A stretch of DNA of 64,000 nucleotides from Azolla caroliniana. Lineage: Eukaryota > Plantae > Polypodiophyta. Under the pieces are notes generated by a model. It did no database searches. It worked only from the letters and a program-made list of their open reading frames with translations, and was not told where the DNA came from. The position numbers and the translations under genes are program-made. Each line of letters begins with the position of its first letter. Within the stretch, counting starts at the first letter, position 1. Location: assembly GCA_043228905.1 (NCBI GenBank), contig JBHGNT010000018.1, positions 12,152,001-12,216,000 on the forward strand, given 5' to 3'. Shown one piece after another: positions 1,747 through 41,556 of the stretch.

Positions 1747-2018
1747 TGTCATAGACACAATGGAATATAGGGGGTTGAACCCATGACCTCTTGGTCTTAT
1801 AGGGCAACCTTACCAATTAAGCTACATTCCATCCATGCATTATTGTATTGTATAAGTTTCAACTTATTACATTGTAAGTTAATCACTAGAACTTTCAAGA
1901 AACTTCTAGAGAATGCATAGACAACCACTCTCTAGAAGTTTCCATGCATTCTCTAGATGTTTCCTAGCTTACATGCGTACCACCACATTCTTGTATAAAT
2001 ACTTTGGTGCACCTTTAT
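1747..2018 (+). repeat. Truncated LTR (family 1), U3 part only
   Basis: Starts TGTCAT right after the PPT; near-identical to 4675-4947, then diverges just after the TATA box (gtataaatact) into internal pol-like sequence. Confidence 0.9.
1759..1833 (-). ncRNA. tRNA-like cassette in LTR U3 (antisense)
   Basis: Reverse complement TGGAATGTAGCTTAATTGGTAAGG...GAGGTCATGGGTTCAACCCCCTATATTCCA: A-box-like, B-box-like and paired ends. Confidence 0.7.
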
Positions 2019-2313
2019 TGTACCACAAGACGTGCACGGTCGTTTTCTTGTTGTCGAGAAACCTCTGCAAGACGTCCACGGTGGGATTGATGACGAGGGT
2101 CGCGCATTGGGCAATGGCGGATGACATGGCCGGGGGTACCACAATAGAGGCAGAGGCCATTGTCACGTTGATGTTGCCGATTCCATTGTGGCCGATTCGA
2201 GCGTGGTCACCTCCATGCCTGTTGTGTCACATGACGTCCCTACTCTTGTCACCAATTTGCCCGCAAGATATTGCGATTTTTTGGACATGTTCGAAAAGCG
2301 AAATGCAGACCGG

Positions 2314-4674: not shown

Positions 4675-5123
4675 TGTCATAGACACGATGGAATGTAGGG
4701 GGTTGAACCCATGACCTCTTAGTGTTATTGGGCAACCTTACCAATTGAGCTACATTCCATCTATACATTATTGTATTGTATAAGTTTCAACTTATTACAT
4801 TGTAAGTTAATCACTAGAACTTTCAAGAAACTTCTAGAGAATGCATAGACATGCACTCTCTAGAAGTTTCCATGCATTCTCTAGATTTTTCCTAGCTTAC
4901 ATGCATACCACCACATTCTTGTATAAATACTTCGGTGCACCTTCATTACAATCAAGGTGAACAACACTAGTTATGAAAGCATAATTTAGTTTTCGCTCTT
5001 TTGTCTACCCTCTCTCTCTCTTGTTCTCTTATCTATGCTCCTCTCTATCTATATATCTATATTTCTCTCTTTGTTAATATTGAGCTCACCTACTTGTCGT
5101 TGCCCTCGTCTACGTCTGTGACA
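4675..5123 (+). repeat. 3' LTR (family 1)
   Basis: TGTCAT...GTGACA, follows the PPT, TATA box at about 4922, CT-rich U5. Confidence 0.88.
4687..4761 (-). ncRNA. tRNA-like cassette in LTR U3 (antisense)
   Basis: 12-bp inverted repeat gatggaatgtag/ctacattccatc enclosing TAGCTCAATTGG (A box) and GGTTCAACCC (B box) on the minus strand. Confidence 0.75.
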
Positions 5124-5721: not shown

Positions 5722-8309
5722 CGCTTGAATAAAGTGACGATCAAGAATTCATATCCATTGCCCCGGGCGGACGATCTAATTGATCGTCTCCAAGGAGCTC
5801 GGTATTTTACAAAACTTGATCTCCGTATAGGCTACCATCAAATTCGTATAAGTGAGGATGATGTTCCTAAAACGGCATTTCGTACGCGTATGGCCATTAT
5901 GAGTTTTTGGTTATGCCTTTCTGTTTGATCAATGCTCCGGCCACATTTCAACAAGAAATGAATGACATTTTCCGAGAACAACTTGGAAAATTTGTCATTA
6001 TTTTCTTGGATGATATTCTAGTTTATAGTCATACATTAGAAGAACATGCTAAACATGTCTGCTTTGTTTTACAAACATTGCGCGACAAACAATTCTACGC
6101 GAAGATCTCAAAATGTGAGTTCTTCAAGAGATCAATTACTTATCTTGGACATCTCATAACTAAACGAGGAGTTGAAATTGATCCTTCTCGCATCGAGAAA
6201 ATCAAACTTTGGCCCACTCTTCGGAATATTCGAGAAGTTCGATCAGTCCTTGGTTTTGTCAGGTTTTTGCGAAAATCCATTCGTAATTACTCCCAATTGA
6301 CAACGTCGTTTACTGATCTTCTAAAAGGTGAAATGCGTAAGTCTACAAAATGTATTGTGTGGAATGCTACACTAGACCTCTCCTTTGAGGAACTCAAGGA
6401 CCTAGTGTGCAAGGCTCCTTCGCTTCTTTTGCCTAATCCTTCAAAACCTTTTGAGGTTGAAACCGATGCAAGCGATATGCTATAGGTGTTGTCTTATATC
6501 AACATGGTAAACCAATAGCATTCGAGAGTAAGAAATTTGATTCTGCTCAATGTCGGTATACGGTTCAAGAAAAGGAATTATTTGCAATTACACATGCGCT
6601 CAAAACAAGGCGCCATTATCTTTATGGAAATCATTTTTTGGTAACTACGGACCACGAGTCCTTGAAATATTTTGGTGACCAACAAGACCTGAAAGGTCGT
6701 AAGGCACGATGGGCTGATCTCATCCAGGACTTTGATTTTTCCATACGATATCATAAAGGTTCCATGAACATTGTCGTTGATGCATTAACTCGCATTTGTG
6801 AAGTTAACATGCTTAGCTTCACTGAAATAACATTAGATCTTTATGATCACCTTCGAGGAAAGTATCATGATGACAATTATTTTGCGAAATACTGGGCAAG
6901 AGTTGAGTCTAGAACAAACACCACCACATCCTCAAAGGAATCCTTCCACATTGCTAACGGTCTGCTCTACCGTAATGGAAAGGTTTGTGTTCTAGATTTG
7001 CCTGAGGTCAAAAAAAGAATTCTTTTTAAATGCCATGATGCACCCTCAACGGGGCACCCTAGAATACATCGTACACTCGTTCTCATCTCCACGCAATTCT
7101 ATTGGCCTAAGATGCATCGTGACATACATAGCTATGTGACTAAATGTCACCAATGTCAGGTTAACAAAGCCGAGCGACTTAAAGCCGCAGGACTTTTACA
7201 TCCTTTGGACATTCCCAATAATAAGTGGGAAAGTATATCCATGGATTTTATTGTTAGCCTTCCTCGCACCCAAAAAGGCCATGATGCCATCTGGGTTGTG
7301 GTTGATAGACTAACTAAAATGGCTAGATTTATTGCTACTAAAACCACAGTAACAGCTCTTGAATTGGCTTACCAATTCGTTGACGAGTTATTTCGTTTTT
7401 ATGGGTTACCGATGGATATTGTGAGTGATCGAGATCCAAAATTTACTAGTGACTTCTGGACGCAAGTCTTTAAGAAGTTAGAAACTACGTTGAGCATGAG
7501 CTCAACGGATCATCCTCAATCCGATGGACAAACAGAACGAGTAAATCAAATTATTGAGGACATGCTTTGAGCATACGTTGGTGCAAAACCAACAAAATGG
7601 GAATGTTATCTCCCAAATTTGGAGTTTGCTTATAACAGCTCCAAGCATACGTCGACGGGATATAGTCCTTTTATGTTGATGTATGGTTTTCAGCCATGAG
7701 CCCCGATTGATGTTAATATACATCATGATGAGTTGCAAAGTACGCAAAACTTTCTTAAGGATATGCAAGATATGTTGCATATTGCACGAGACAATATAAA
7801 AACAGCTAAAGATAGAGGGCATTTTTACGCCGATCATAATAGGCAACCTCGTGTATTCAAGCCTGGACAGAAGGTATTTTTACGTGTACCTCACAATTCT
7901 AAGATATTATCTACGGGTAAGTGTGCTAAGTTAGCCCCACGGTTTTGTGGACCTTTTCAAGTCCTCAAACGCACTAGTTCATCAGCCTATTGTCTCGCTC
8001 TTCCCGATGGCGTTGAAATTCATCCAGTTTTTCATGTAAGTCTTCTAAAAGAACTTCTAGGTTCTGGCGACAATACAGTTACAACTGAAACTCTGGTTAC
8101 TTCTGAAGAACTATCTTCTAAACCACATGTACCAGAAAGAATTCTCGATGTTAAAACAAAAAATCTGCGTACTAAAATAATCTGAGAATTTAAAATTAAA
8201 TGGATGGATAAATCTATCAAAGATGCCACACAGGAACGCAAAAATACTCTTAGAACTAACTTCCCTAACTTTTCATTGCAAGAGTGCAATGTTTTAAAGA
8301 GGGGGAGTA
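5722..8309 (+). mobile_element. 5'-truncated degenerate Ty3/gypsy pol (RT, RNase H, integrase, chromodomain-like), different family
   Basis: [46 protein letters not shown] motifs; PPT aaagagggggag at about 8297-8308. Confidence 0.92.
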
Positions 8310-8762
8310 CGTTACGAGCATGACCATATAATATCCCGTGGTGAGAATTTACCGTAGTATTCTATACACGTGGATAAGTGTAGGGTTAAACGAGAGTGTA
8401 AAGAAGGGGAGGATTACTTTTAATCCTTGGGATTGAGACAACCCATTAGGCCAAGTGTGAACTTGCTTGGGGACCTTGGGTATCGCTATAAATATGAGGC
8501 CTAACTACCCTCATTTCATCATATCTTGACTACGTCGAGACTCTGTTTCATGGTGGGTCAATTCTTGTAGCGAGCGCACGCTAGCACCAGGTACGACTCA
8601 ACGCCACGACAGTGATATGGGATGTCGATCGAGGCTCCAGTCCGTCTCGATCCCTTCGCTTGGGGGTGGTCGGGTGGATCGGCACCCTTCTTTCTCTCTC
8701 TCCTTTCTATCTATCTATCTTTTATCCTTATCATATGCTTACTTTAGATCATAACTCTAACA
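8310..8762 (+). repeat. Probable 3' LTR of the preceding gypsy
   Basis: Follows the PPT, TATA box at about 8488, ends ...ctctaaca where copia sequence begins. Confidence 0.6.
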
Positions 8763-12815: not shown

Positions 12816-15800
12816 ATGTTGTGCAACTCTAATATGAACTTCTCTCCAGACAGCATAGAAGAAGAACCTAAAATATGGGAGCATGAGAAGAAGCATGGAC
12901 ATACAACGATAACGAAGAAGAAGAAGGCAAAGAAGAAAAGTGTTGTCATCCCTTTCGATACTATTTTGGTAGCCTCACATCTCGGTGATTCCGAGGGTTT
13001 AGATCTTCTCTCATGGGCGATTAACGTTGCTGCTCGACCAGGGGATTCTGTTATTCTATCCCATTTCAATACGAAGTGTATGTCTTATTCTTCATTTCCT
13101 ATGGTTTTTTATGCAGTTGATTGTGACATCCTTAATGGGCTTGTATGCATTTTATTGTCTCTGCACTCATCCTTTCATGATCCTTAATGAATTCGTTAAT
13201 ATGAGTTTGAGTGTCTTCTTATGCATCCGTTGGTGACCCTTTCGTGGGTTTCTATTGCATCCTTTGAAGGCCAATCAATTGGCTAATGTAATTATACTTC
13301 GTAATGGTTGGTTGGTCGGTCATCAATTGATGCCTTTTCACTTCCATTTAGTTTCTGCTTTGTTGTCCTCCAGGGGAGACTACTTACGGTGGAAAACTAA
13401 AACGTGAAAACATTCAGGGTCAAGAGAGCTTGAGTGCAAAATTTGCAGCATTGAAAGATGTCTGCAAGATTAAGCAGGTAATACATAGACATGGAATCGC
13501 TCCATATATATATATATATATACCAGTTTGCATTGATGCAGTTCAGTGTCTCATGAAAACGTTGTTTGGGGCAGGTGAAATTGGACTTCAAGGTGTGCAA
13601 TAATTGGCTTGATATAATTCAGCAAGCTTCATCCAGTAATGCAACAATGCTTGTTGTGCGACCATCTAGTCAACGTGAGCTACTACGGTAAGAAGAAGTA
13701 TGGAAGAGAAACAAATATATGTGTGCTGTAACGCACATGCAAACTTTTTCGTTTTTCATTGTATATAGAGTGGTGGTATTTCTTCAGGAACATACAAAAG
13801 ATGGGTAACTCATTGGCACAGAGAATACCAGCAAGTTGCTCTGTTGCCATTGTGAAAGACTATAAGGTGCTTTTCTACAAGGAGAAAGCTTCTGACAGTA
13901 GCTGTATGGTTTCTGAAGGTGAAGCATACAATATTCTCATTGTTATAAGTATTACAAAGGATTAAACAGTTTTCCTATGGAGTAATTGTAATGGAGCATA
14001 TTCGGTTTGACAGAAACTCCAAATCTATTGCATGATTGGAGGACTGAGGGATTGAACCCTGCATCCTTTTCACATAATTCAAGTCCATGCTGGGGTAGAC
14101 AAGAGGAGAACGTTAAGTGTAATTTAGGCGGTAAACTATTGGCGAATGATGCTGGAGGGGGTTCTCCAAGAGGTGTTCTGGATGGATTTGGATTTTCATC
14201 AGAGTCCGACATGAGCTCACCTTCAAGTAGTCATTGCTCATTATCATATTCCCTCTCCCGAAAAGGATTGCTCTCTTGTGTTTCCTTGCAAGATGATAAT
14301 CAATCCATGTGTAGAGGTAGCCCAAAGAGAAGTATGTTTATGCAACGGTCATTCACATTTCCTTCAAATAAGCATCATAAGAAGTGTCCAGGTCCATTGG
14401 ATTGTAAACTAATGAGAAGCTCCTTCAAATCATACATAAATAGTCTTTGCAGCACAGAGAGCATGAGCCATGATCCATTGGCACCAGTGCCTGTGGTTGT
14501 GGATTGGAGATGCTTCTCTTATAAAGAACTCGCTATTGCAACAGATGACTTCAATTCTGGTTAGCATTTAATTTCTGCAATTTAGGGAAAACGCCATCAT
14601 ACCCCCAACTTGCTTGGTATTTACTACAGCAGCTCTAACTTCATTACTTACTAGATTATTCCTATGTAGTACAACTTTTACTATTGTAGAAAAGTATTAC
14701 ACTGAACTTATAATTTGTCTTTATTTTATGATTTAAGGCTGTATATATTGGCTGTTATGTTTCAGGGAATATGGTAGGAAAGGGAGGTCAGGCCGAGGTT
14801 TATAGGGGTATGTTGGATGATGGTAGGCTTGTTGCTGTGAAGCGACTCATACAGAAATCCTCTGGGGATGTTAAAGAGAAGGAGTTTCTCTCAGAGCTTG
14901 GCATCATTGGGCATGTGTCACATCCAAATACTGTTGCTCTCGTTGGATTTTGTGTTGAAAATGGGTTACATCTCATATTTGATTATTCATCTTATGGGAG
15001 TGTGTCAACATTATTACATGGTAAACACTAGAACTCCACCCTTGGAAATTTTTGAGCGATCAGAATAAATTTCCTGAAAATTAATGTTTATAGATGTCTG
15101 TGTGTGTGTATGTGTGTGTGTGTGCGTGTGCGTGTATGCACATGTATAGATGTATTCAATGTACATACATACATTACATATTTGTACTTGTGGAACGAAT
15201 TCCATGTACTTACTTATTTATACTCTGTAGGTGGAAATGAATCTGTTTTAGAATGGTCAATTCGTTACAAAATCGCTGTTGGAACTGCTCGGGGTGTCCA
15301 CTACCTTCATAGCGGTTGTCAGAGACGAATTATTCACAGGGATATAAAAGCATCCAACATCTTGTTAGGTCATGAATTTGAGCCACAAGTAAATATTTCG
15401 CCCCCTAAATTTGCTTTTAGATGTGCATTTTGAAATTCTTCTAATGATTTTAGCCTTATCATGTAGATTTCAGATTTTGGGCTAGCCAAATGGCTTCCTG
15501 GGGATTGTACCCAGTTGAGCGTTTTTCCTGTCGAGGGAACATTTGGGTAAGTTAAACACAACTTTCTATGCTAAAGCATTATCTTTAAGCATTTCCTTTC
15601 TACTTCATCTCACATCTCTAAGAACTAATTATTATGAGTGAGTTAAACAAGAATTATATGCTGAAGCACAGTGTGAAATCATCACCTGTTTACATTGTGT
15701 AAGAGACCAGAAACATCCCCACCCAATAAAATATTATGTTGTACTCATTTACGTGTTATGTATTTGATAGTGTTTAAACATCTCAGTTTAATCCTGATTT

Positions 15801-18514: not shown

Positions 18515-21500
18515 TCACACTGTCTTAATTAAATCCTTCTCCTGCTTTTGGAGAGATTGGAGAGATATTGTTGGTAAGGATAGCAGGATGGACATGTCCT
18601 CCTTCTCCTTCTCCTTCTCCTTCTCCTTCTCCTTCTCCTGCTGCTGCTGGCGACGAGCCAGGATGAGATGGTCCATGCAGGTGGCGTAGATGTGCCGAAG
18701 CGTAGGGTTCATATCCAGGGCATCATTAAACCATTTCTCCTCTTTCTCCTCCTCCTCCTCCAGAAGATTCACCAGGTCCTGATCTTCAGCACTCATCGAT
18801 CTCGCTGCATGAATCCAATATTCATCATGTTCTAGCTTTTTCTGTGCCCACTGATGATCCTCATCTGACAGCTTGCTCTTCTCCACTAATGAAGCTAAGT
18901 CCATTATCTCTTCAGAGCTCCTCTCTGAATTAGCGTCCTCCTCGTTTTCTAGCTTCCTTGTCATTCCTCCATCAATGTATTGGCTATATTGGATCAAGGT
19001 TATGGGACAATCCTGTGGCCGTGGCTCCTCCGCAGTAGTTGTCACGGTGATCAACAATTCTGGACGCACAGGAGTTTTCCCCATATTAATGAATTCTTGT
19101 TCATTGATGGCTACTGTTGCAGGAAGAGCAGTAGCAGTAGAAGTATTATTTTGCAGGTGGGATTGGGCAGCGTGTGTTTGAACACTAGCTGTAGCATCTA
19201 CATCTTTCTGCGTGTTGCTTCTTAATATACTCTTATTACAATAATGAGAAGATGATTTGCAGTCATCAGGATCTTGTGCTGACATATGATAAGAAGAAGA
19301 AGAGTTGATATCAAGGATCTGATCGTCATGTACATTATATTGTGGCCATGAATCAGCGGATACCCTCTGGACCTGATAATTATGTGTGGGAGATGTGTAC
19401 TCAGCCAAAACACTCGTGCTCATGGTCGAGCCCGCAGCAGAAACAATTGTGGTAGTCCGTTCTTTATGCAGCATGCCCAGTTCTACTTCGACAGCTACTT
19501 CATCCTCCTCACCACCCTCCTCCTCATCATCGACCTGAACCTGCAGCATCACGACAGTGCTAAAGAATTTATTCAGCTGTATGTATTTAATATATAATTT
19601 TTGTGACAATCAAGGCATGGCTTTGGAGCGAAATTATGGGAGCTCCATTTTAGCGTGTTGTAATTAAAGCTGGATGAAATAGAATGTTTATGATTTGCAA
19701 ATTCATTGTTTAAGGTGCACCACTTACAGAAATGGGCTTCACTGATGATGATGGCATGTTGTTGTTGTTGTACATTTGGGCTTCCTGGTTATAATTTGGT
19801 CTGCAGGATGCCATAAGCTCCGAGACAAGCCGTCTGGCCCACTTCCGAGGAGACAAGCCCTCCAGATCCTCCAAGCTGTAGCGGCAGTATTGTTTTGACG
19901 ACCTCCTGCTAACCATGGAGCATGATGAGCTTTTCATGGCGGCCTTCCTTTTAATAACCTGCGTCTGCATCCCTCCTCCTCCTCCTCCTCCTCCTCCGGT
20001 GTGTCCTACACCTCCACCTCCACCTCCACCACCACCACGATCTCCCCTGCTCATGATCCGAGGAGGTTTCGAATGCACCACATTAACGGGCTTCGTCGTT
20101 AATAATCTCGGCACAACAAGACTTCTATTAGCACAGGCGCCACTCCTGCTAGTACTGCTCTTCTGTACAAGGTTGTCTGAGCCAGATCCACTTTTTACGC
20201 TGGATAAGCTCAACAAATCGTCTGCAAAGGACCTTGTGCTGGGGCTGGGGCTGGGGCTGGGGCTGGGGCTGATCATGTCCTTGTTCTTCACGGCTGCAGA
20301 ATCCCTTAGAAGGTTGCCATCCAGATCTCTGGGGATAAAGACGGACTCTTCTTCTTCTTCTTCTTCTTGGCAGACGCTACAGCACTCGTGAGACACCGTG
20401 GATGAGGCGTCGACAGGATCACGCATACAAACTGAGCCTGATGATCTGCAGGAAAGGGATGCCGCCACTGCAGCTGCATTATCACTAGTACTATGACAAC
20501 CTTCCATTCCGGCTGCCTCCCCAACAGGCATATGAGTGCAGCAAGCATTCCCCCAGTGGCAGCACCTATGGTCGCTGGACAGAGGCCGCCTCTTTGTGCT
20601 TCGCGAAGGGGGCCTTACCAGAAGGTAGCTCGCTGACTGCAAGTTTATGACTTCATTCTCAGAGCGTGCCCGCGGGCTATGATGATGATGAAGAGTATCC
20701 TCCGCCTGATTATGCTGGAAACTGTGGAGGAAAGCTTCCTGCATCTTCTGCGAGCTTCGATGAGGATCAGGTACGGGAGAACATTTAGTCCTAGGTTTTT
20801 TGGCGGCCATTATATGTTGGTCCGACTCTACATCAAGAAGCCTGCTACACTTAATAAGGTAATTCATAGATGACCTCCGGCCGTCTGTGTCTGGCTGTTG
20901 GCCGTACTTGCATTGATTTTGTTTCTCATCACCCAATTTCACAATATTCAGCGCATGGCCGATGCTGCTAGATTGATAGGTGCTAGTATCGTCACTCTCC
21001 TCCATAGACTGCCTGTAGCTGTGAGCATCAGACTGGACCTCGATTACATCAGAAGCCGAACGATCAGAATTTAGCATCGGCTCCTGTAGCTGCTGTAATT
21101 GGCGATCGTAAACCATATTTCTGTCGCTGTGGAGCAGGTGGTAATTGTTACCCGCAGACTCATGAAAGGTGAGGTTCATTTGATTGCGGAGACAGGTGGG
21201 CCCGGAGGAGAAGCGTTCCCATGCGTCCAGACCTGACGAAGAGGAATACTGTATAGAAGAAGGAGGAGGAGGGGAGGCAGAGGAAGAGGAAGAGTCGGTT
21301 GAGTTGGAAGGAGAGGAAGAAGGGGAGGCAGGTATTACGGGTAGGGAATTGGAGATGTCGGAGAGATTGAAGTGAGCGAAGCTATTGGGTTGGTTGGAAC
21401 AGAAGAGGCTAGGGTTAGGGTTGGGATTGGGATTCTGAAGAGGGTTAGGGAAAGGGCTAAATGCGGCGGTAGAAGTGGTAAGGTTAATGAAAACAGCGGA

Positions 21501-22161
21501 AGAAGAAGGGCGGCTGGTGCTTGTGCTAGTGGTAGTGGTAGTGGTAGTGGTAGTGGTAGTGGTAGTGCGGCGGAGGAAGGAGGGATAGATGGAAGTGTCG
21601 TGGGGGTTCTTCCTGCGCTCGGTGATGGAGCGTTGGGAGCGGATTCGCCTGCACATGGAGAGGAGGTTGTGGAGGTGCGAGATGGTGGCAAAGGGCGACT
21701 GAGACCGATTATTGATTTGGATCTCCCGCTGGATGTTGCGGGGGAGGAGGGGGAGGAGGAGGCTGGAGGCGGAGGCGGAGGCACCGGTGCCGGCGCTAGC
21801 GCTACTACACGGCGGCCATATCAGGCTCTTGATTCGAGTCCTCCGGTTGCGACTCAGTGCGCCTGCACTGATGACGGGCAGAGCCGCAGTGCTTAACGAC
21901 CTCCTCATTCCTCCTCCTCCTGATCCTGATCCTGATCCTGATCCCCATCCGGCCCCACTCCTATGAGGAGGAGGAGCAGGAATCATCATCGTCTTTTTCT
22001 TCTTCTTCTTCACCTGTGCCACCCGCCTGAATGTCTCCCTCACTTCCGCCATCTCCTTCTCCTTCTGCACTGCGTGCTGCTTCTGCTTCCTCCGCCGCGA
22101 TGCCGCCTGCATCCCGCTCCCACTATTACTATTACTATTACTATTGCTATTGCTATTGCTA

Positions 22162-22201
<40 letters not shown>

Positions 22202-22235
22202 ACTTCTGCTGCTGCTGCATCATCATCGGTGACAA
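18515..22235 (-). CDS. Uncharacterised low-complexity protein of about 1,180 aa; exons 22235-19728 and 19540-18515
   Basis: 841-aa and 364-aa ORFs joined in phase 0 by a GT(AAGT)...CAG intron; triplet-only repeats preserve the frame; no recognisable domain. Confidence 0.72.
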
Positions 22236-22516
22236 CGATGACGAAGACGATAGAGCATCATCTTCTTCCTCTCTTCGTAGAGAGCTTATCTATCTATCCG
22301 CTTCTTCTATTCTTATTCTTGTTTGGTTAGGTTCGATTAATGCCCGTCTAACCTCCCTCTCCCTCTCGTCCGTCTGTTACGTGGTCGTGGTTAACCAAAT
22401 CATCCATCCATCATTACATATGTACCCCTTCCTATCTTAATCCAATCTAATCTAGTCTTTTTATTATAATTCTTTTAATCCTATGAAACAACAATTACAT
22501 GTTTGTCCTACGAGAG

Positions 22517-22828: not shown

Positions 22829-22901
22829 CGGGCATAGCTCAGTTGATAAGATTGCCCAATGAAGACCAAGAGGTCATGGGTTCAACCCCTATCTTCCACA
22901 A
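22829..22901 (+). ncRNA. Free tRNA-like (tRNA-Phe-resembling) sequence, SINE head or tRNA pseudogene, homologous to the LTR cassette
   Basis: GGGCATAGCTCAGTTGATAAG-ATTGCCCAATGAAGACCAAGAGGTCATGGGTTCAACCCC; shares ttgccc...ccaagaggtcatgggttcaaccc with the 1759-1833 cassette; anticodon arm does not pair. Confidence 0.65.
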
Positions 22902-22999
22902 TGGCATCTAGTGAATTAGGAAATATCTATAAAGTAATAGAGAGATGAGAAAATTAGGTTTTGAACCCAAGGCGTAGTGCTCGTAGCCGCGAGATTCCG

Positions 23000-24450
23000 C
23001 ATTATGACGCCATCACACCACACCAAAGGTGGTTAATGTTCCACGAAACCACATCACTCCCTCCTACACCCACACCTACAACATTGCATTGTGAGTGTTG
23101 AGGAAAGAAGTAGGAGGATGTACCACCACCACCACCACCCACATCATACACTGTTGGATAGTTACTTCTATAGGACAAACCTTGGTGCTTGGATAAATTA
23201 GCATTAGCTATTATGTAGCCCAGATGACCCTCACCAGAACGCAATCGTCAAGACCTTGTTTTTGGAATTCGGTAGTTGCTCAAAACCCCGACCCATGGTT
23301 GGTTATTCAACAAAACCCCCTCCTTAGAGATAATCCTTCACAAAAGTGGACTTCTTGTCCATGTATCATGATCAAGTCATTCCTAGGACTCCTCGTGTCA
23401 TGCCATGCCACAAAATCCATTCCTTCACTATGATTCTTATTTTGTATTTACCCACAAGAGCCATCAACCTTTTACTTAGCTCTCATACACATGGGTTCAA
23501 GAGTTCAAATAGTTGAATCAAAGCCAAAGAAGTAGGCTATGATATGACCTAATAAAATCTAAGTTTTGAAATTGAGGCCAAGAGACATGAAGGAAAAAGT
23601 AAAGTTGTGGCAGAAGTCAAACAAGGGCAAACAAGCGCGCCGATCACAACTTCATGATTCTAATGAGCATATTCCTTGACTCCCCGGGATTATGAGGTCC
23701 TCATATATGAATAACAACTTTTACCCCTCATTCACATTTGACCAATAAGTAGGTTACCATTCTTCTTATGTTTCACTTATCCCCTTTGAAGTATGTGGAC
23801 CTTCGTTCCAAAGATTTGTAATAGTCAAGAAAATTGTAAAAAAACTCTCCTCCTCAATCAAACATTACCTTCATTTCTTGATGCTTCTCCACTATCTCAT
23901 GCCACTTTCTAAATCCTCCAAGAGCCTCAATCTTCTCGGCCTTGAGAAATTAAACCCATATCATTCTATTGTAATAATCTATTTTGAAGAAGTAGGATGA
24001 CTTGTCTAATGCTTTAATCATCATCTCTCCACAAAGCTCAGCCTATTAGAGCTAACGGTTCTTAGTAAAGGTTCAAGACCAAGTATATGGACCATTTGCA
24101 CACAATGATGGTGTTCTCAAAACATGTAAGTGGTATCCAATAGTTCCTTCACAAACTTAGAACTAAGTAGATCAACAATGATGCTTAGATAGTACCCAAC
24201 AATAAGGCTACAAAAGGAAAACGACTATTAGAAGATGGTACACATTATACACAAGGATAAAGCTCCAAAACTAATGCATGATTCTAAGATTCTCATGTGC
24301 AAACCATTATGATGCACTCATAACGCTACGAGAAGACCCACTTTTTAAGACATAGTTTTCTTCATCACATTATAACTTGGAATATATGGTTCATACTTGG
24401 GTAAGCAATCAATATATTTCCAACCACTCCATGCAATTCATATTTATGAT
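23000..24450 (-). mobile_element. Highly decayed retroelement gag-like remnant
   Basis: Weak zinc-knuckle-like residues (GEGH, CGM..HEE) on the minus strand; many stops. Confidence 0.3.
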
Positions 24451-25070
24451 AAAAATCTCCCGTGGAGGTCTTGGTCATCAGAAAACTAGCAAATTATTTC
24501 TATCAATTAACTACATCCACCTCTTGAGTGCAACTAATGTATGTAAAGTATTGACGGAATTTTATTAAGGACCATGTTATAAACACAAGGGAGAAAGACT
24601 TTAAGTTGTGTGTCTATGTATGTATGTGTAAGGAGACAAAAACTTCATATAGTATTGAGAACAACTTATATTGATTAGGTGGAGAATTAAGGAGAAAAAA
24701 TTAGATAAAGAGAGGGTTGGTTTATATGAAAAAGACTTATGAATTAAAAGTGAGTAAAGTAAACCAATAATTCATATAGAGGGAATGAAGGCGTCCAATG
24801 CATTCAATATTGAGAATATATCCCATACACTTATCATAAAAAAAAGTTCATCTCAAAAATTTGAGTAGAACAAGCTCGTCAAACAATCCATTAGCAACCA
24901 TTTGTTACTAGTATTATAATTTGCTTTTAAAAAGGGGTAGTTAGCATGGTGATAGTTCTTGGTTGTAAAAGAGTAGCAAGGGCAATAGTGAAGTGAAGAC
25001 TTTTATGAGAGTAAAATATAGACAAAAGTGGTAACATTTGTGCAATTGGGACGAACGCATAACTATTAAA

Positions 25071-27920
25071 GAAGACCTCCTCCAGGCATATGAGGAGATC
25101 ATCACCTTTGGAAGCATGCCGGAGGAATTTGGATAGGGGATGGTACATCTCATTCCTAAAAGTGGTGGGAACCAACGACATTAGCAAGTGGCGGCCCATA
25201 ACTCTTCTCAATAATGTATATAAGTTGCTCGCAAAACTCGTGGCACGTCGTTTAACACCACTTCTCCCTCAACTCATTCATTCGTCCCAGACAGGGTTCG
25301 TTAGAAATTGGAGCATCCTAGACAACCTCTTCTCATTCTGGGAAGTAGTAGCCCTTGCTAAGCGTACCAACAGCAAGGTAGCGGTGGTGTTACTAGATTT
25401 TGAGAAAGCATATGACAGGGTATGCTGGAACTTTCTAGAAAGTGTGATGGGGAAACTCGGCTTTCAAGAGACATGGATCAAAGGCATTGCAGGACTTTAT
25501 AGGAATGGCAACAATTGTGTTTCATTGGCAGGTGAAAGGGGCCCCTTTTTCCCAATATCCTGATCTGTATGACATGGATGCCCACTAGCTCCATCCTTAT
25601 TTCTATTATACGCCGAAGCACTCTCTTGCTTTCTCAACTCGCGGCATCTCAACCTACGTGGTCTTCCCATACCTCATTCTCAGCAAAGCATCCTAGATAT
25701 AGAATTTGCAGATGACACAACAGTCTACCTGCAAGGGGACTTGGAAAACCTCCAAAAGCTAGAAAGTGGGCTAGCTGTATTTTGCAAGAGATCCAATACC
25801 ATGATCAATTGGCACAAATCCTGCGCAATATGGCTCTCTCAGGAAACACATTCAGCGTGGCACCCACATCCCGCTTTCAAATGGATCAATCAAGGAGCGA
25901 GCACCAAATATTTGGGTTTCCAAATTGGTTTCAACATATCGCCGGAGACTATGATTGCACCCGTTATCCATTCCATTCGACAAAAGTTGATATATTGGAG
26001 CTCGAAAAAACTATCGCTAGTAGGTTGCATCATAGTGGCAAATCAGGTACTACTCACAATAACATGGTACAGTCTATCATGCTGGACAATCTCCAAGGAA
26101 TGTATACATCAGATTCAACGATTGGTTCGCAACTACATTTGGTCTGGTAAGGAAGACCATGTAGCTCGCACCAAGGTGGTGTGGCCTATACTCACAGCGC
26201 CTAAGTCGAGAGGGGGATTGGGTCTTATTGATCCCCTTTCACAATTGAAAGCCTTACGTGCCAAATTTGAGGTGCGAGGACTCCAACCAAGAAATGATTG
26301 TTGGAAACTACTACTGAGGTTACGCTTCGCTTACTTTAGGCCATGAAAAGGGGTCAATTGGCCCCCCCAAATGGGATGGATTCTAAACATGGATCTCAAA
26401 CCTAGTTTCTCCCGCCAATTGGAGGATAGATTCAGTGTATCCATGTGGACGGCATGGTGTGACATTCGTCGAGGGCTCAAGTGTGATCAACCGAGATTCG
26501 AACCTGCCTGGCTCAGTCAACGTATCCTATGGAACCCACGTATCAAGGATGAATCTAATCAACTACTGGGATCACGTAAGGGGTTGTCATGGGGATACAT
26601 TGCAAAAGGTCCAGGAAAAAGTATAGAATGTTGGCGACGGTTTATGTCACTGCCACTACAAGATTAGGCAAACATACTCCATGGAATCAGGGGCGGATGG
26701 ACTATGAGATCGGAAATCATTAACGCTCTACTGATTAGGGAATTTGCTACTCAAAGGACGACAATGGAGAAATGGATAGGTCACGAGGAAGAGGGATCTC
26801 TGATCCCGAGAGGCAGGGGACCACCAAACAAGCTCGAAGGCTCTGAATTGTGAGACACTGAGACACCAACACAGAATAACGCAATTCGAGTACTCGCGTA
26901 TACTGGTCATAAATGGATTGTAGATCCTAATCCGATCAAAGTACAATCTGATTGGCACATATGTACTCATGAAAACACATGGCTATGTAAGGTTAGTTGG
27001 GACCCTTTTGCAATGGACATGGCGTGATCCCTACGCGGGGCAAGGAAGCAAACCAATCCCTTTCTTCCAATTCAGAACTAGATTGGGTCGCCACATTCTA
27101 GTTGCTCAAACCGCCAGAGAACCGGCTGCTGCGAAGGTCTGGCACACATTTCAAGTTCCTCCCACAATAATCACCAAGTTTTGGCAGAAAATCTGGAAAC
27201 AACAACACGCGAGGCGAATTACCACGTTCTAATGGCTATTAATACATAAGTCCCTACTGGTGGGAGCATGGCAACGTGGGAACCTTAGCTATCCTAATTG
27301 TGTAGAGTGCCCACATGCAGTAGAATCAATACGACACGCTTTGTGGGATTGCCCAACGTCCCATCGAATATGGCGGGGGGTTGGCCGCTTGTTGCAATTA
27401 TGCCAGGTGCAAGGCTCAATCAAGTGGGGAAATATATGTTGGCTATCATGGCAGGCCGTAGTTGGCAGATACGAGCACCAGGAGGAGGGGATGACTTTGG
27501 TGATAAAAGCACAAGAGGTCCTTTTCTCCTCTAGCGGCAATGTCCACTCCACTCCTCTTAATGACAAATCTCAAGAGGTGTTGGAATTGGTCAGCCCAAT
27601 AACTCTTTGGATTCTATAGAAACAACGATGTAGGCGAGTCTTCTCCAACCAAACCGCACATCCAACAAGGTTACTGCAAGAGATATGGAGTGAAATTGTA
27701 GCCACTCTAAAGAGCCAATATGATGGCCTTAAGGGCGGCTCCGATGGAGTTGAAAGACAACAAATAACCTTCATCTAACAATGGTCGTCCTCTCCCTTTC
27801 TCAAGTCAGTGGGCATCCACATAAGGTGGAACTATCGCGTCCCTACATGGATTTGTACATAATCGTCTCATTTGTAAAAATTTATAACTAATGGAAGGAG
27901 TTTTTTTTGGAAAAAAAAAA
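25071..27920 (+). mobile_element. 5'-truncated L1-clade LINE (ORF2 RT plus zf-RVT), degenerate
   Basis: WRPITLLN, QTGF, LDFEKAYDRV, GCPLAP, FADD, KYLG, GGLG and C..C...ES..H.LWDC motifs; ends in an A10 tail at 27911-27920. Confidence 0.92.
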
Positions 27921-28864: not shown

Positions 28865-31853
28865 ATGTCATCTGCGTTAGTTTTTGCTGCCTGCTCCATG
28901 GCAGGGACTACTGCTGTGTCCTCCTCTTCTTCTGCTCCTCAGAACATGCAGGTATGCCATGCCGCCCACGCCCACACATGTATGTACATATACTTAGAGA
29001 TTCATCCTCGTCTTCTATCTCTCTCTCTCTTTCTCTACCCGATGCCCAATAAGTAATTACCCACCCGTCCGAATTTTAAGTGGAAAGGCAAGTAAACCTT
29101 TCTTCCACTTCGAATTGATTGATTTATTTTTATTTATTTTGTTGCTTGGAGCAGCAGCAGCAGCAGTCTTCACCACATTCTCTCAAGTTCTGTGGCTTGA
29201 AAAAAGCTGCCTTTGCATTCCAACATGGGAAGGATCTTCCCATCCTTAGCTTAAAGGTAAATCGATTCACTTCCCCTCAGTTTCTTCCCCCTGTGGATCA
29301 ATATAACATTTTATTCTTCTGTTGTCCAGTCTGTAGCCAGGATGAACATGTCTATCAGCACAGAGGCTTCTCGGTTTCATGGAGTTCCAATGGCTCCTCC
29401 TGATCCGATCCTGGGTGTCTCAGAAGCGTTCAGAGCTGACAAAAGTGATCTGAAGCTCAACCTTGGCGTTGGAGCTTACAGGACAGAAGAACTTCAGCCA
29501 TATGTTCTCAGCGTTGTGAAGAAGGTTATACATCTTCTTTCCTTTACCTGTGTATTTGTACTTGTGATTCTGAGGTTGAGGTTTCTGGATCAAGTCCAGT
29601 TAAATGTTGAGATCTTGATTTGGCTTGTGATTCTGTAGGATCTTGATCTGTGTTTTGTTTTGTTTTGATGAGTTACTTCTTTGAATTGTGACTTATTAAT
29701 GGTAACATAATTTTCGTTCTTCAGGCTGAGAAGCTAATGCTAGAGAAAGGGGATAACAAAGAGGTGATGGTCTTCTTTAATCACTCTGAAAAAATTCTAT
29801 AATACAAATTACGGATGAATCCACGAATGGAAGCGTTTCTCAATTAGGTCTATATTATACAGATTGCCGAAATTTTCATGAAATGAAGTGGCAATGCTTG
29901 CATATATTTTTGTTATTTATCATGCTTCTATAGATATACCAGAAATTGAATGGTAATATCCATGGTTTATGCAGTATCTACCAATTGAAGGTCTTGCAGC
30001 TTTCAACAAGGCCACTGCAGAGCTTCTTCTTGGAGCAGATAATCCAATCCTGAAAGAAGGCCGAGTAGGTGACCGTGTTTCTAAGAAATAATAGGGCTGA
30101 CTTACTCTAATCTGGAGCGTTATTTACTTATCAATGTTGTAAAATGTTTGTTTCCAAAATGAACAGATTGCGACAGTTCAATCTCTTTCAGGTACAGGAT
30201 CACTTCGTCTTGCAGCAGCCTTCATCCAACGATACCTACCTGGAGCCAAAGTTCTCATTTCATCTCCAACCTGGGGTAAGGACGTGTCTCCGATTTCTTA
30301 GTGTACATCTTGACGGTAAATCAAGAATGTTTTGCAGTCTTTTCTGTACATTTTGTTGTGTATCTTGAAGCTTCATTTTAATGCACAGAAGTCCTATTTC
30401 AAAGATAATTATTTTTGTTCTCTACTTACCCTTTGAAGTGGTTATCTGTATGTGCTAATATATGTATTTCTGCACTGACTAATCACTTTCGAATGGGGTA
30501 TTTATATGTGATGCTATCACTTGATGAGGAACAAAACAGCATGTCTGTCGGTCATTGGCATCTTGGCAGATATCTTTGATAAACCTTAAGATTTTCTCAT
30601 TGCTCTGTTATATGTTCTGATTCCCTGTTAACAGGCAATCATAAGAATATTTTGAACGATGCTGGGGTCCCATGGTCCGAGTATAGATACTTTGATCCAA
30701 AGACTGTTGGACTAGATTTTGAAGGAATGATAGCTGACATTAAGGTAATAGAAGATGTCATCCATACAGCTAGATAAATAAAATGCTATAAAATAATATT
30801 TTCTCCTTTTCTAGATTCCTCTCTCATACTGCCTTATTTCATTTTCTGGCATCAAAAGGATGCTCCAAGCGGATCTGTTATACTTCTTCATGGTTGTGCT
30901 CACAATCCAACTGGGATCGATCCTACCAAGGAACAATGGGATGTTATAGCTGATGTTATACAGGAGAAAGGTCACATAACTTTCTTTGACGTAGCATATC
31001 AGGTAATGTGGGTGGTCATTTGAATCTGGTCTGATTTTGACCTATGTGGATTATATAACGTGTTTATGATTGTTTTGTTTTAATAGGGATTTGCTAGCGG
31101 AAGCCTAGATGAAGATGCTTATTCTGTTAGGCGATTTGCTTCTCGTGGGATGGAGCTATTTGTTGCACAATCGTACAGCAAGAACTTGGGCTTGTATGCT
31201 GAACGTGTTGGAGCAACAAATGTGATTACATCTTCTGCAGATGTTGCTGCTCGGTAGGCTTCATTTTTTCTGCAAATAGTACATTTTTTTGAATCTTTTC
31301 TATTTTCCCCGCTCCAGCCAAGCTATCTGAGCTGTCTTTCAAATTGTTTGCTAACACACAGCATCAAGAGTCAGTTGAAGCGTTTAGCTCGCCCCATGTA
31401 CTCTAATCCTCCTGTTCATGGAGCTCGCATTGTTGCCAATGTTGTTGGAGACCCTGTCTTATTTGATGAATGGAGAGCTGAGATGCAGATCATGGCTGGA
31501 AGAATCAAGCAAGTAAGGCAGAAGCTATATGATGAGCTATCTTCCAAGGACAAGAAAGGGAAAGACTGGTCATTTATTCTCAAACAAATTGGCATGTTCT
31601 CGTTCACTGGCCTCTCCAAAACACAGGTATGTAGGATAAATTGTTGCAGGATAAATTGTTAATGTTAATTATATTTTCATATGCTAATGAATGTTATTGG
31701 TGAAACAATTTTGTTGGGCAGAGTGATAACATGTCAGACAAATGGCATGTTTATATGACTAAAGATGGGCGCATTTCATTGGCTGGGCTCTCTTCTGCCA
31801 AATGTAGCTACCTGGCTGATGCGATCATTGATTCATACTATAATGTGCAGTAA
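28865..31853 (+). CDS. ASP5: Plastid aspartate aminotransferase; exons about 28865-28951, ~29151-29256, 29330-29524, 29725-29763, 29975-30065, 30166-30275, 30635-30744, 30859-31002, 31087-31253, 31362-31626, 31722-31853
   Basis: [65 protein letters not shown] (PLP lysine), [14 protein letters not shown] motifs; Ser/Ala-rich transit-peptide-like N-terminus. Confidence 0.95.
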
Positions 31854-35602: not shown

Positions 35603-35969
35603 TGTTGTGAAGATTTCCGGCTACGGTGAGAAAACTAGGTGGAATAGGCAAAGTCAGCAATGTGCACCGTGTGCACATGTACATTCGAAAATGTGTATAA
35701 AATAAAAAGGGGATATTTATCCCACATTGTAACGTCCTTCCCTTCTTGGACTATAAAAGGACGTCCTTCCCTCCTTAGACTATAAATGGAGAGGAAGGGG
35801 CTCTTTTGAGGGGTTGCACATTTTGCGTTAGGAAGGTATCCCAATTAGATCTAAGGTTTGATAGTTGTCTCTTCTTCTTACTTTCTTTTAGGGTTTCTTC
35901 TTCGTCGTGTGGGTTGAGTCTTCTTGTCTATTAAGGGTTTAGCCCGGTTGAGAGCTCATATGTGTCATG

Positions 35970-36039
35970 ATATGGCAAGACTCGAACCCATGGCCTTATG
36001 TTACATGGGTCGAGCTCTTGACCATTAGACTATATGTTG
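35970..36039 (-). ncRNA. tRNA-like cassette in the 5' LTR (antisense)
   Basis: Reverse complement ...ATATAGTCTAATGGTCAAGAGC...CATGGGTTCGAGTCTTGCCATAT. Confidence 0.65.
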
Positions 36040-36493
36040 TACTACGAAGATATTATTTTCATTTAGGTTTTACTATAGAAAATTGATGTATATTCCAGAT
36101 TTCTCTGGAACATTCTAGAAACTTTAGGAGTACTCTTGAGAACACTATAAAAGGAGGCACAAGGCATTATTTCGAACCAAATCGGTTCAACGCTAGTCTT
36201 AAGCCTCCTAGCTACTATTGTATATTCCCTTAACATAATATATATCTTTTGTTATTCTCATTCTCTCTCTCTCTCTCTCCTTCTCTCGAGAGTTCTACAC
36301 CTCCCTTAGTACTAATCCTCATCTTTTAGTACTAATTCCTTCTCTGTTTTAGTACTATTCCTAACAATACTTCTCTGTCTTAGTACTGCTCCTGATAGTT
36401 TGAATCGATTTCTCTCGCTTTCCTTCTCTTCCTTTATCTTCTTACTTCTCCCTCCCTTCGTACTTATCTCTTATTCCTCTTTTCTCTCATACT

Positions 36494-37636
36494 ATGGCCA
36501 CTATTAGTGCTCAAGAATATCAATCTGTTTTCTCAGAGCTGCAATGCTTGAAAGAGAAGTTCCTTGCTTTGGAACAAGAAAATCAACGGTTGTTGGGGGA
36601 TCTTCAACAAATCTCCTTAGAAAAGCAGCAGACACAACAACAACATGGGGAACTAGTGGTACGTGTGCAACAACTCGAAGCAACCTTAGTAACGATGCAA
36701 CAACAAGGACCTAGTACACAAGGGATTCATAAAGAACCCAATATCGGCCTTCCCATGAAATTCAATGGAACGCGATCGCAGTTTAGAGGATTCCTTAATC
36801 AGGTACGATTAGTCATTCAAATGCATCCTTCTCGATATCCCACCGATGCATCACGAGTGGGACTAGTAGGCACTCTACTTAGTGGCACGACTTTGGCATG
36901 GGTCGCCCCCCTATTAGAAAAAAACTTTCCCTTTTTAAATAATTTCGAAGAGTTTATTACCGAGTTTAAAGCCTGTTTTAGAGATACCGATAGTGTTAGA
37001 ACAACAATCAACAAAATCCAAAGATTGCGCCAAGGTGAGTGGCCGGCCTCAGCTTATGCTGCGGATTTCCGTCTTCTCGCCATCGATATTCCCTGGGATG
37101 ATCAGACACTAATGGAGCAATTTCATTTTGGCCTATGTAATGATGTTAAAGATTTACTCTTAACTTTCCCTGAAGAGCCAAAGCCATTGACACAAACAAT
37201 CAGTCGTGCGGTGCGATGCGATAATCGCCTCTTCGAACGATGTTCGGAACGTCAGTTCCAAATGCCACGGACAAAATCGGAGCCCACCTACGCTTCAATC
37301 GTAGCAAAGCCTTTCCCAAGGGAGTCATTCAATATGTCTCCAACAAATACTCTAACTCCAATGGAAATCGACACCACATGTCGCCGCGAACCACTATCGA
37401 AAGAAGAAAAACAGCGACGTAGGGCAAATCGATTATGTCTTTATTGCGGTGGACCGGGGCATATTGCAATGAACTGCCCCCATCGGCCGAAAAGGCAGGT
37501 AAATCAAATAACCGCTAGTACTAACAGTACTAAACCCGAGTCTATTCCTCTAGGTGTGTCTGATAGTCTTAATAGCCCAAGCCTTTCAAACAAATTTGAA
37601 ATCCTTAGTCAACTAGAACAAGAGTTAAATGATTAA
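36494..37636 (+). CDS. Intact gag ORF of the chromovirus (380 aa)
   Basis: KFNG..FL, LRQG, PMEID and CLYCGGPGHIAMNC zinc knuckle. Confidence 0.9.
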   Translation: MATISAQEYQSVFSELQCLKEKFLALEQENQRLLGDLQQISLEKQQTQQQHGELVVRVQQLEATLVTMQQQGPSTQGIHKEPNIGLPMKFNGTRSQFRGFLNQVRLVIQMHPSRYPTDASRVGLVGTLLSGTTLAWVAPLLEKNFPFLNNFEEFITEFKACFRDTDSVRTTINKIQRLRQGEWPASAYAADFRLLAIDIPWDDQTLMEQFHFGLCNDVKDLLLTFPEEPKPLTQTISRAVRCDNRLFERCSERQFQMPRTKSEPTYASIVAKPFPRESFNMSPTNTLTPMEIDTTCRREPLSKEEKQRRRANRLCLYCGGPGHIAMNCPHRPKRQVNQITASTNSTKPESIPLGVSDSLNSPSLSNKFEILSQLEQELND

Positions 37637-40600
37637 GTCCAACCAAAATAGGAGCCGTTTGGTTGGACAACCCTAGATCTGTGCAACCCATTAGTGGTTC
37701 CATTTCCTCTAAGGAAGTTAGCAATGTGTTCTTAGCTCAAGTAATGGTTAGTACTAAAAGTACTCCAGTACATGTCTTAGCACTCTTAGATTCCGAAGCC
37801 AACTCTTGCTTCATGGATAGGAATTTTGCCCAAGCTCATCAGATATCCCTAAAGAAACTCCATGTCCAGCCTCTGTAGTAGTCATTGATGGTCATCCCAT
37901 TGCTTCTGGGAATATTATAGAAGAGTTAGAACCCGTTAATATTGTCCTAGATAACTTTAGCATGTGTAGTATCATTTAATATAATTAGTATCCCAGAACA
38001 TCCCATTGTTTTGGGATTACCATGGTTCGAATTACACAACCCAACCATAGATTGGAGAACAAGAGAAATACGACGTCTACAAACCTGAGGATCTACTCAT
38101 AAGATTGCAACCATTTCACTACATTAGTTGTGTGAGGAAAGACGCAACGAAGAAATGTTTCTCTTCGCAATATCAATAAACCCCTCTAGTATCAATAAAG
38201 AGGAGTCCGCCGTTCAACTTCTAGAGAAGTATCGTCATTATGCCGATGTGTTTGATAAAGTGCGAGCTAATACACTTCCTCACCATCGATTGTATGATTG
38301 CCCCATCGATTTACAACTGGGAAAAGAACCACCATGGGGACCGATCTACAATTTGTCACCAATTGAGCTAGAAGTCCTTCGAGCCTATATAGAGGAGAAT
38401 TTGGCAAATGGTTTCATTTGACATTCGAAATCTCCAGCCGGTGCACCCATTTTCCTCGTCAAGAAAAAGGATGGATCACTTCGTCTTGTTGTAGATTACC
38501 GTGGGTTGAATAAAGTCACCATCAGGAATAGGTATGCACTTCCTCTTATCTCAAGTCTTTTAGAACGGAACAATGGTGCAAGGTTCTTCACAAATATCGA
38601 CTTACGAGGAGCGTATAACCTCGTACAGATCTGACCAGGAGATGAATGGAAGACTGCGTTTCGCACAAGATATGGGCACTTCGAGTATACGGTCATGCCA
38701 TTCGGCCTCACTAATGCGCCAACAATCTTCCAACACATGGCAAATGATATATTCCGAGATCTCTTGGATGATTTTTTGATCATTTATTTGGATGATCTAC
38801 TGGTTTATTTGAAGACCCAAGAAGAGCATGATTCTCATGTACTGTTAGTACTAAAATGACTTCAAGAACGTGGTCTTTATGCAAAGCTGGAAAAATGTAG
38901 TTTCGGGTGCAACTAGGTAGAATTTTTGGGCTGTCATTTCCTCGGAAGGCATCTCCATGGATCAAGCTAAGGTCAAAATGGTGGTAAAGTGGCAAACTCC
39001 GCGTTCATTGCGAGATGTGCAATTCTTTTTAGGCTTTGCCAATTTTTACCGCAAGTTCATACAGGATTACTCAAAGCTTGTTCTGCCTCTCACACAACTT
39101 ACCAGGAAGGGAAAATCGTTCGTTTGGTATGAAGAAGCGGACATTGCTTTTGAGAGTCTTAAGAAGGCATTTACATCAGCTCTTATTTTAGCTCATGTTG
39201 ATCCAGAAAAACCATTCATCATTGAAGCAGACGCGTCAGATTTCGCCTTGGGTAGCATTCTGTCTCAACAAGGCGATGATGAAAAGCTACATCCTGTGGC
39301 TTTCCATTCACGCAAGTTTGACGGCGCGGAAATCAACTATGAAACTCATGATAAGGAGCTATTAGCAATAGTGGACTCTTTTACGCAATGGAGACATTTT
39401 CTAGAGGGGTCTTCTCATCAAGTCATTGTATTCAGTGATCACAAAAACCTTGCCTACTTTCAGAATGCTCGTGTGTTAAATTGACGTCAAGCTCGGTGGG
39501 CCCAATTCCTCACTCGTTTTGACTTCAAAATTACATATTGTCTGGGGAAGCAACAAGGGAAGGCGGATGCATTATCACGGTGTTCGTATCTAGCACCGCG
39601 TCCCAATGAGCCGGCTTTCGATAACCAAAAGCAAGTAATTTTGGGACCGACACGATTGCAAGAAACGCAGGTCTTCAGTATGCCCTTGGATTCCCATGTT
39701 ATCGATACCATACTTGAGGACTTGAAGATAGATGTTTTCGCTCAAGCCATTCTAGCACAAATTGATCCCTCTCGAGCATCTTGTTCATAGTCACAACAAC
39801 CAGGTACGAACTATTGGCAATTTGAATGTCATGATGGATTATTATTCTTTAAGAAACTCTTGTATGTTCCTAATGGTACTTGTCGTCTTCAAGTAGTCCA
39901 AAACTGTCATGACACATATACAACTGGGCATTTTGGTAGTACTAAACACTAGATTTAGTACAACAATCCTTCTAGTGGCCCCATATGCGACAATTTGTCG
40001 AAGATTTTGTTCGGACTTATGATACATGTTGCAGAGCAAAAATGCCAAGGCATCATCCATATGGTTTATTAGAACCATTACCAATTCCAAGCAAGCCATG
40101 ACAATCCATTGGCCTAGATTTCATCACATATCTTCCAGTCTCTAAGGTATTCAATGCGATCTTAATAGTTGTAGATCGATATATGAAGATGGCCCATTTC
40201 CTACCATGTACTAAGGAAATCTCCAGTGAAGAAACCGCTAAAATTGTCATGCGTGAAGTATGTCGTCAGTTTGGCCTTCCCGATAGTATCATCAGCGACC
40301 ATGGACCCCAGTTCATCTCAAAGTTCTGGAAGCACCTCTTTAAAATGCTTAAGGTCACTTGTAACCTCTCCTCCGGCTACCACCCGCAAACAGATGGCCA
40401 AGTAGAACGAACAAATCAAACGTTGGAGCAATATCTTTGGTGCTTTTTAAGCTATCATGAAGATGATTGGGCGGATATTCTCCACTTCACCGAATTTGCG
40501 TATAATAACTCTGCCCACTCATCGACAAAGGTGACACCATTTTATGCTTACACGGGCTGTCACCCCCGGTGGTGTGTATTTGAAACCCTAGAGTTATCCA

Positions 40601-41213: not shown

Positions 41214-41283
41214 ATATGGCAAGACTCGAACTCATGACTTTATGTTCCATAGGTCGAGCTCTTAACCATTAGACCATATGTTG
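41214..41283 (-). ncRNA. tRNA-like cassette in the 3' LTR (antisense)
   Basis: Reverse complement ATATGGTCTAATGGTTAAGAGC...GAGTTCGAGTCTTGCCATAT, with atatgg/ccatat end pairing. Confidence 0.65.

Positions 41284-41501: not shown

Positions 41502-41556
<55 letters not shown>

Follow-up and report, generated by a model that had tools for sequence, protein, structure and literature searches.

An outward-facing tRNA-like cassette at the LTR edge of chromovirus-type retrotransposons in Azolla caroliniana, a candidate mobile TFIIIC boundary

The window analysed here, a stretch of 64,000 nucleotides of the Azolla caroliniana genome, is dense in retrotransposons and holds a few host genes. Host exons were recognized for a kinase (14732-15430), an aminotransferase (30778-31659) and a CNNM protein (60730-61251), together with a LINE-like reverse transcriptase remnant (25063-27616) and, on the reverse strand at 18515-22289, two long low-complexity ORFs of 364 and 859 amino acids without Pfam match. 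A preliminary description had reported five tRNA-like cassettes, at 1759, 4687, 35970, 41214 and 59112, and all five are present with their boxes at these sites, each lying just inside the TG start of an LTR and antisense to the element. In the family A 3' LTR at 4675-5123 (forward strand, TG...CA), which follows a PPT and a chromodomain-integrase end, the cassette occupies 4687-4761 on the reverse strand, with its A box at 4741-4752 and its B box at 4700-4709, and is bounded by the exact 12-bp terminal inverted repeat previously noticed (4687-4698/4750-4761). A second family A 3' LTR (1747-2019, forward strand), truncated at 2019, carries its cassette at 1759-1833 (reverse strand; A box 1813-1824, B box 1772-1781), the inverted repeat showing there 10 of 12 matches. 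Both LTRs of family B bear a cassette on the reverse strand, at 35970-36039 in the 5' LTR (A box 36022-36032, B box 35979-35988) and at 41214-41283 in the 3' LTR (A box 41266-41276, B box 41223-41231). Complementary ends had been ascribed to two families; they hold for family A with its 12 bp, but not for family B, where only about 6 bp pair, use A-box bases and are not in acceptor-stem register. The family C cassette, at 59111-59185 on the forward strand (degenerate A box 59118-59128, B box 59163-59171), shows a T4 run 14 nt after the B box and lies in a reverse-strand 3' LTR at 58787-59208. Its presence agrees with the preliminary description, but the element to which the LTR belongs is a non-coding derivative, its interior measuring 1.37 kb (59209-60582), and not a coding chromovirus.

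A pattern combining PPT, TG and boxes matched the window twice, versus no match in 100 shuffles, and the four PPT-TG junctions of the cassette type in the window all have a cassette, as does the 5' LTR at 35963. When a profile of the cassettes was run over the window, two previously overlooked copies were located, one LTR-less at 22835 and one divergent at 2557-2608. The divergent cassette, spanning 2545-2615 on the reverse strand (A-box-like motif 2600-2608, B box 2557-2566; profile match 2553-2576, E 0.04), shows by eye a GG-to-B-box spacing of 36, precedes, also by eye, an AT-rich tract, repeats and a TATA, and is probably the start of another LTR. The profile gave no match at the copia LTRs of the window or at the second-clade chromovirus LTR near 8310.

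Outside the window, LTR starts were collected by a metagenome scan with a pattern consisting of a PPT, an LTR start and a B box, 99 of an estimated ~750 matching stretches being listed. Before counting, 76 of the 99 were dropped, 75 of them as an unrelated tRNA-SINE-like repeat (61 flagged by script and 14 by eye) and one (L051) as chance-like; no retrotransposon protein match was found in any of the 76. This abundant repeat fits the search pattern coincidentally (L001, L003-L006, L008 and about 70 more loci). The outside set kept comprises 23 LTR starts in 22 loci among the matches listed, two pairs being near duplicates, and together with the five window sites makes up the 28 LTR starts listed; seven LTR groups, window included, were assigned by eye. 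The pattern imposed both the antisense orientation and the B box on the 23 outside LTR starts and, because the B box was imposed, only non-imposed features are counted as retained; selection by the B box likewise makes the share of related LTRs without a cassette not derivable from this set. Family B is abundant in all four runs examined, which carry four organism labels, and viral contigs gave no match to the cassette pattern and none by protein.

The family B element (35963-41672, forward strand; LTRs 35963-36397 and 41207-41672, 87% alike) is a full-length, mutated Tcn1-like chromovirus, a 5.7-kb Ty3/gypsy element with gag, reverse transcriptase, RNase H, integrase, SH3 and chromodomain, flanked by a 5-bp target duplication with one mismatch. 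Pfam Chromo is matched by three window ORFs, and the chromodomain cage residues Y, W and Y are present by eye. Integrase cores are 79, 67, 63, 51 and 46-55% identical to that of family B, and their tree, built without a reference Tcn1 row (likeness to SM-Tcn1 being judged by eye), contains two supported deep clades, one of B, F and G and the other of A and E. Since a chytrid protein joins the A, E clade, the tree does not unite the cassette bearers to the exclusion of other elements. Among named sequences, these integrases are closest to some from chytrid fungi and a frog, and they stand apart from seed-plant elements in the tree. A chromovirus of another clade lies at 5871-8740 (forward strand), its nearest named protein being from the fern Ceratopteris (54%), and its LTR start near 8310 is without cassette, which makes it a useful negative control. 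By eye, SM-Tcn1 of Selaginella also has no cassette at its LTR start, so that, considering both, chromoviruses do not need one.

A self-priming site follows the 5' LTR of family B (36398-36411, forward strand), complementary in 11 of 12 positions to the LTR 33 nt after the TATA (36146). Complementarity of this kind (11-12 of 12 positions, 31-33 nt after the TATA) is displayed by five of nine junctions in four covarying versions, the site and its LTR partner changing together between families (window 36398-36411, L025, L030 and L044). The four junctions without partner correspond to one truncated 5' LTR, two in a copia-associated repeat and one in L075. The repeat in question, of 610 bp and 94% alike between its copies around a copia gag-pol (43213-43824 and 47926-48559, reverse strand), holds a TGACA-GTTTG junction of self-priming-like appearance whose partner reaches only 7-8 of 12. 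With the genomic RNA starting just after the TATA, the cassette falls in U3 and is therefore neither primer nor promoter of that RNA.

Arrays of nGAAn or alternating GAA/TTC units, which we take to be heat-shock-element-like, are found at 4816-4845 (forward strand), 1888-1917 and 36107-36125, the family A TATA (4922-4927) coming after its array. Such an array precedes the TATA in 19 of the 28 LTR starts listed, 136-226 nt into the LTR, and the order within the LTR is cassette, AT-rich linker, heat-shock-like array, TATA and self-priming site. The linker, upstream of the boxes, has a GC fraction of 0.12-0.36 in 26 of 27 cases and of 0.48 in the rearranged L050. The motifs suggest that these chromoviruses may be heat-inducible, and no report of heat-shock-like arrays in them was found in the literature searched. 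Derivatives without coding capacity, whose 1.4-kb interior holds a 48-bp tandem array along with a low-complexity tract rich in purines, occur in the window at 58787-60669 (reverse strand) and in L030, L044, L069, L075, L080, L081, L086, L095 and L096; the one with the cassette at 59112 is related to L030 (80% over 1.3 kb), and both L030 and L044 contain LTR-interior-LTR-interior arrays.

Three families unlike in sequence had been described as keeping position, orientation and boxes of the cassette, an observation that extends here to seven LTR groups. The A-box end, TGG or TGGT, was not imposed by the search and stands 34-42 nt before the B box in 23 of the 28 LTR starts listed; outside the window, TGGT at that spacing is present in 18 of the 23 listed, against a background of 0.07-0.10 per 6-nt band. 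When every 4-mer of the 230 nt that follow the B box was compared, TGGT was common in place to all seven groups and AGGT to six. With one representative per group these values became seven and five, respectively, and none of 300 shuffles reached seven of seven; the remaining top 4-mers across groups correspond to the heat-shock-like array. AGGT is not a textbook promoter contact. A and B boxes at tRNA spacing include a full A box in families A and B and a partial one elsewhere, with G10 lost in groups C, F and G and A14 lost in E, as judged by eye. A crude estimate of the between-group identity excess gives 0.062 for the cassette versus 0.056 for the U3 stretch located 100-144 nt further on, and thus does not set the two apart.

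Within families, comparison of the boxes with the rest of U3 gave a divided outcome, variation being restricted to the anticodon stretch in family A and no overall gain being displayed by family B. In genomic contigs of family A, substitutions at a level of at least 10% affect seven cassette positions, all within 4717-4726, the anticodon stretch. None of the 65 other cassette positions reaches this level, versus 9 of 108 downstream positions (Fisher p 0.014, for regions picked post hoc), apart from one common 1-base deletion at 4698; cassette depth exceeds that of the flanks, partly owing to an LTR-less repeat. For family B, contig depth in run X1 is about 1,000,000 at the LTR start and B box and 80,000-160,000, about a tenth, at the anticodon and A-box region. 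Variable positions amount to at least 10 of 76 in the family B cassette and at least 20 of 170 downstream, and both variants listed in the 5' half of the A box remain within its R and Y positions.

Likeness to tRNA is recognizable but incomplete. Among the window cassettes, the two of family A alone give an end-to-end alignment with the Rfam tRNA model, scoring 25.4 and 24.4 bits (E 0.0035 when 201 bases were searched), and all scores fall below the cut-off of 29 bits. Any score at all was obtained at two of the five noted window sites and one of 20 outside loci, and ARAGORN found no tRNA gene in the window or in the 22 outside loci; on both grounds, the cassettes are considered tRNA-like sequences rather than tRNA genes. 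No conserved cloverleaf was found, folds differing between groups with broken D and anticodon stems, and a fold z of -2 or lower is reached by seven of 27 LTR starts listed. The B box stands 12-38 nt from the LTR edge in the 28 LTR starts listed and 6 nt from it in an unselected LTR of L044, a range which shows that the cassette can do without the 3' side of the tRNA acceptor stem. Only three of the 28 LTR starts listed, all of group C, have a T4 run within the LTR; in the others the first T4 lies 41-220 nt away or is absent from the retrieved sequence (seven cases). The proposal that these elements maintain a Pol III/TFIIIC module is supported in part, by motifs and spacing that persist in seven groups where the fold does not. 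That the boxes and their distance are kept while fold and terminator are not points to a type 2 promoter acting at the DNA level.

The LTR-less copy (22830-22915, forward strand; cassette 22835-22898, profile match 22833-22891, E 6e-10) combines a family A cassette with a short tail. One comparison gave it 86-88% likeness to family A; in another, family A cassettes match it at 73-84%, the related L089 at 70% and all others at 64% or less. In a tree on 69 columns, 13 of whose 23 inner branches are open, it is placed among the family A cassettes (98/95). Its tRNA-5'-end head is joined to a short tail that three runs show again in contig ends with varied flanks; neither a clear A/T tail nor a target duplication was seen in this copy, and its A box misses the RVTGG motif (PMC7315354). 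Judged by its sequence, the repeat may be SINE-like, either a SINE born from the LTR cassette, a recaptured SINE or a fragment of an LTR subfamily, and the first of these would imply Pol III transcription. In run X21, guessed to be RNA, four contigs matched the cassette alone, some of them including the tail of the LTR-less copy, and in run X23 none did, neither count being a measure of expression. A very weak box pair at 22955-23007 (reverse strand, E 1.4) converges on this copy; the long ORF at 19710-22289 lies about 550-700 nt downstream of the pair.

A and B boxes bind TFIIIC, and TFIIIC places TFIIIB on AT-rich DNA upstream. As the cassette faces outward, TFIIIB would assemble on the AT-rich linker at its inner side, beside the heat-shock-like array and the TATA. 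In the 5' LTR the TFIIIC/TFIIIB complex would then separate silent chromatin in the flank from the Pol II promoter, which could stay open after insertion into heterochromatin, and reverse transcription would copy the module to both LTRs at each cycle; every step from factor binding onward is one that we infer. Considering that (i) the cassette has this outward geometry, (ii) chromodomains of the cage type, whose residues are present here, read methylated H3K9 (PMC6317226, in its accessible parts), and (iii) tRNA genes bar the spread of silencing in yeasts (PMC7990762, likewise), the reading chosen is that the cassette acts as a mobile TFIIIC/TFIIIB barrier shielding the Pol II promoter of the element from silencing, a tentative one to which we give slightly less than an even chance. 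The portions of the literature examined contained no demonstration of tDNA barriers in plants. A broader version, in which a chromovirus-borne insulator of Pol III type was kept or re-acquired in two integrase clades and its outward Pol III transcripts founded a SINE-like family, appears rather doubtful. Its LTR-to-SINE route would be the reverse of that proposed for Helenus and Cassandra, and the direction is tentative, given the short cassette tree with many open inner branches.

Alternatively, the cassette could be a passive relic, a tRNA or SINE captured once and copied along with the LTR with no present function. The weak tRNA model scores, the variable A-box region of family B, the bias of the outside set toward the B box and the existence of cassette-less relatives (SM-Tcn1 and the second chromovirus clade of the window) all agree with it. 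Nonetheless, the A-box end and its spacing persist in seven of seven groups, between whose LTRs the heat-shock-like array is the only other common feature, and in family A variation stays within the anticodon stretch, features that make a mere relic unlikely.

Selection might instead act on a product, namely a short Pol III transcript that leaves the LTR, crosses the PPT and the end of the integrase in antisense, and regulates the element. The AT-rich linker upstream and the T4 run shortly after the group C B box would suit such a transcript, as would LTR-less copies that start near the cassette 5' end, have varied flanks and nest with family A cassettes, since this is expected if Pol III transcripts were retrotransposed. 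The short antisense RNA envisaged in the preliminary description is nevertheless weakened by the scarcity of T4 runs inside the LTR (three of 28 listed) and a read-out length that is not conserved, and the absence of a conserved fold further renders a functional RNA quite unlikely.

Ty3 has a split primer site, to which a role in the genomic RNA can be likened: the sense strand would anneal to the D and T loops of host tRNA, or form a hairpin by the PPT, aiding packaging or strand transfer. The words kept are exactly those of the invariant tRNA loops, AGGT included, and in families A and B either strand can form a long hairpin; against this, the elements self-prime, the complementary patches span just 4-9 nt and the hairpin is missing from most groups, making such a role improbable. 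Families A and B had suggested that a long hairpin might be conserved, but it failed across groups. It is highly improbable that the cassette serves as a landing pad for integrases aiming upstream of Pol III genes, as in Tj1, a self-priming Tf1 relative inserting within 12 bp upstream of tRNA genes according to the accessible parts of PMC4600332, for none of the five noted window LTRs is interrupted just upstream of its cassette, none of three element flanks in the window is cassette-like, and contig ends at the LTR start disagree mutually (agreement 0.36-0.40).

The mobile TFIIIC barrier preferred here has partial counterparts in known systems, compared below on the accessible portions of the cited sources. 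Novelty of the cassette had been left to a literature check, whose outcome is mixed, the antisense cassette in coding elements being unreported there and tRNA-derived LTR segments being known from Helenus TRIMs (PMC10886601). In these elements (TRIMp3; Kojima 2024, PMC10886601) the LTR contains a tRNA-derived segment with conserved boxes A and B in which the tRNA itself is non-functional; a SINE origin was proposed, and one plant case, in Selaginella, is given. Helenus elements measure 311-1263 bp, are non-coding and have tRNA-complementary primer sites, and their segment is thought to drive the element's RNA, autonomous partners being expected to use Pol II, with no such elements described (PMC10886601). 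Both systems share a tRNA-like sequence inside the LTR. However, the Helenus segment is in sense orientation in the LTRs compared, whereas here the 28 LTR starts listed all have it in antisense, at the outer margin of U3. Helenus elements are short and non-coding, up to about 1.3 kb, in contrast with the family B element of 5.7 kb with gag-pol and with a non-coding derivative whose interior alone is 1.37 kb, and their tRNA-complementary primer site differs from the present one, which pairs with its own LTR in elements that keep a TATA promoter. On these accessible descriptions, the cassette resembles the TRIMp3 promoter module in build and is not Helenus by size, orientation and priming. Kojima also states that "not a few" Repbase LTRs resemble part of a tRNA (PMC10886601), and unremarked LTR records may for that reason exist.

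LTR segments derived from 5S are known from the short, non-coding Cassandra and Ajax (PMC10886601, PMC7215508). Cassandra TRIMs similarly carry a small-RNA-derived Pol III promoter in both LTRs, are present in ferns and form LTR-sharing tandem arrays, as L030 and L044 do, but their promoter is 5S-derived, and they are non-autonomous and tRNA-primed, with element RNA made by Pol III (PMC7215508, PMC12786077). In their accessible parts, a 2025 review (PMC12786077) gives Cassandra as the one exceptional case of Pol III use in plant LTR elements, and a paper of 2026 (PMC13570524) refers to Cassandra and Helenus/Ajax and to no others. With the Tcn1 clade, known from non-seed plants, the window elements have in common the Ty3/gypsy order, cage-type chromodomain, self-priming and 5-bp target duplication, and differ in that an LTR tRNA-like cassette goes unmentioned in the accessible text (PMC6317226, PMC2864245) and is by eye missing from the SM-Tcn1 LTR. 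Self-priming of Tf1 type was predicted for this clade (PMC6317226), and no evidence of it was reported for SM-Tcn1 (PMC2864245), whose sequence in supplement 3 of that paper displays, by eye, the same pairing as the window elements. Yeast tDNA/TFIIIC barriers agree with the cassette in A and B boxes, AT-rich upstream DNA and location at a domain edge; they are fixed host genes that seemingly need the full Pol III complex, unlike the mobile candidate site here presented (PMC7990762). No report of an antisense tRNA-like cassette at the U3 edge of coding elements was found in literature that left Repbase and most subscription papers uncovered. As for its origin, a tRNA gene or tRNA-derived SINE was presumably captured, once long ago or repeatedly; an LTR that grew outward across an adjacent tRNA gene would fit the geometry.

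A portable TFIIIC boundary next to a promoter of stress type would explain directly how chromoviruses that insert into silent chromatin remain expressible. If the mobile barrier reading is true, tRNA-derived LTR modules would extend from tiny non-autonomous to coding elements, and the host genome would have very many candidate TFIIIC sites, along with tRNA-like false positives, scattered over it.
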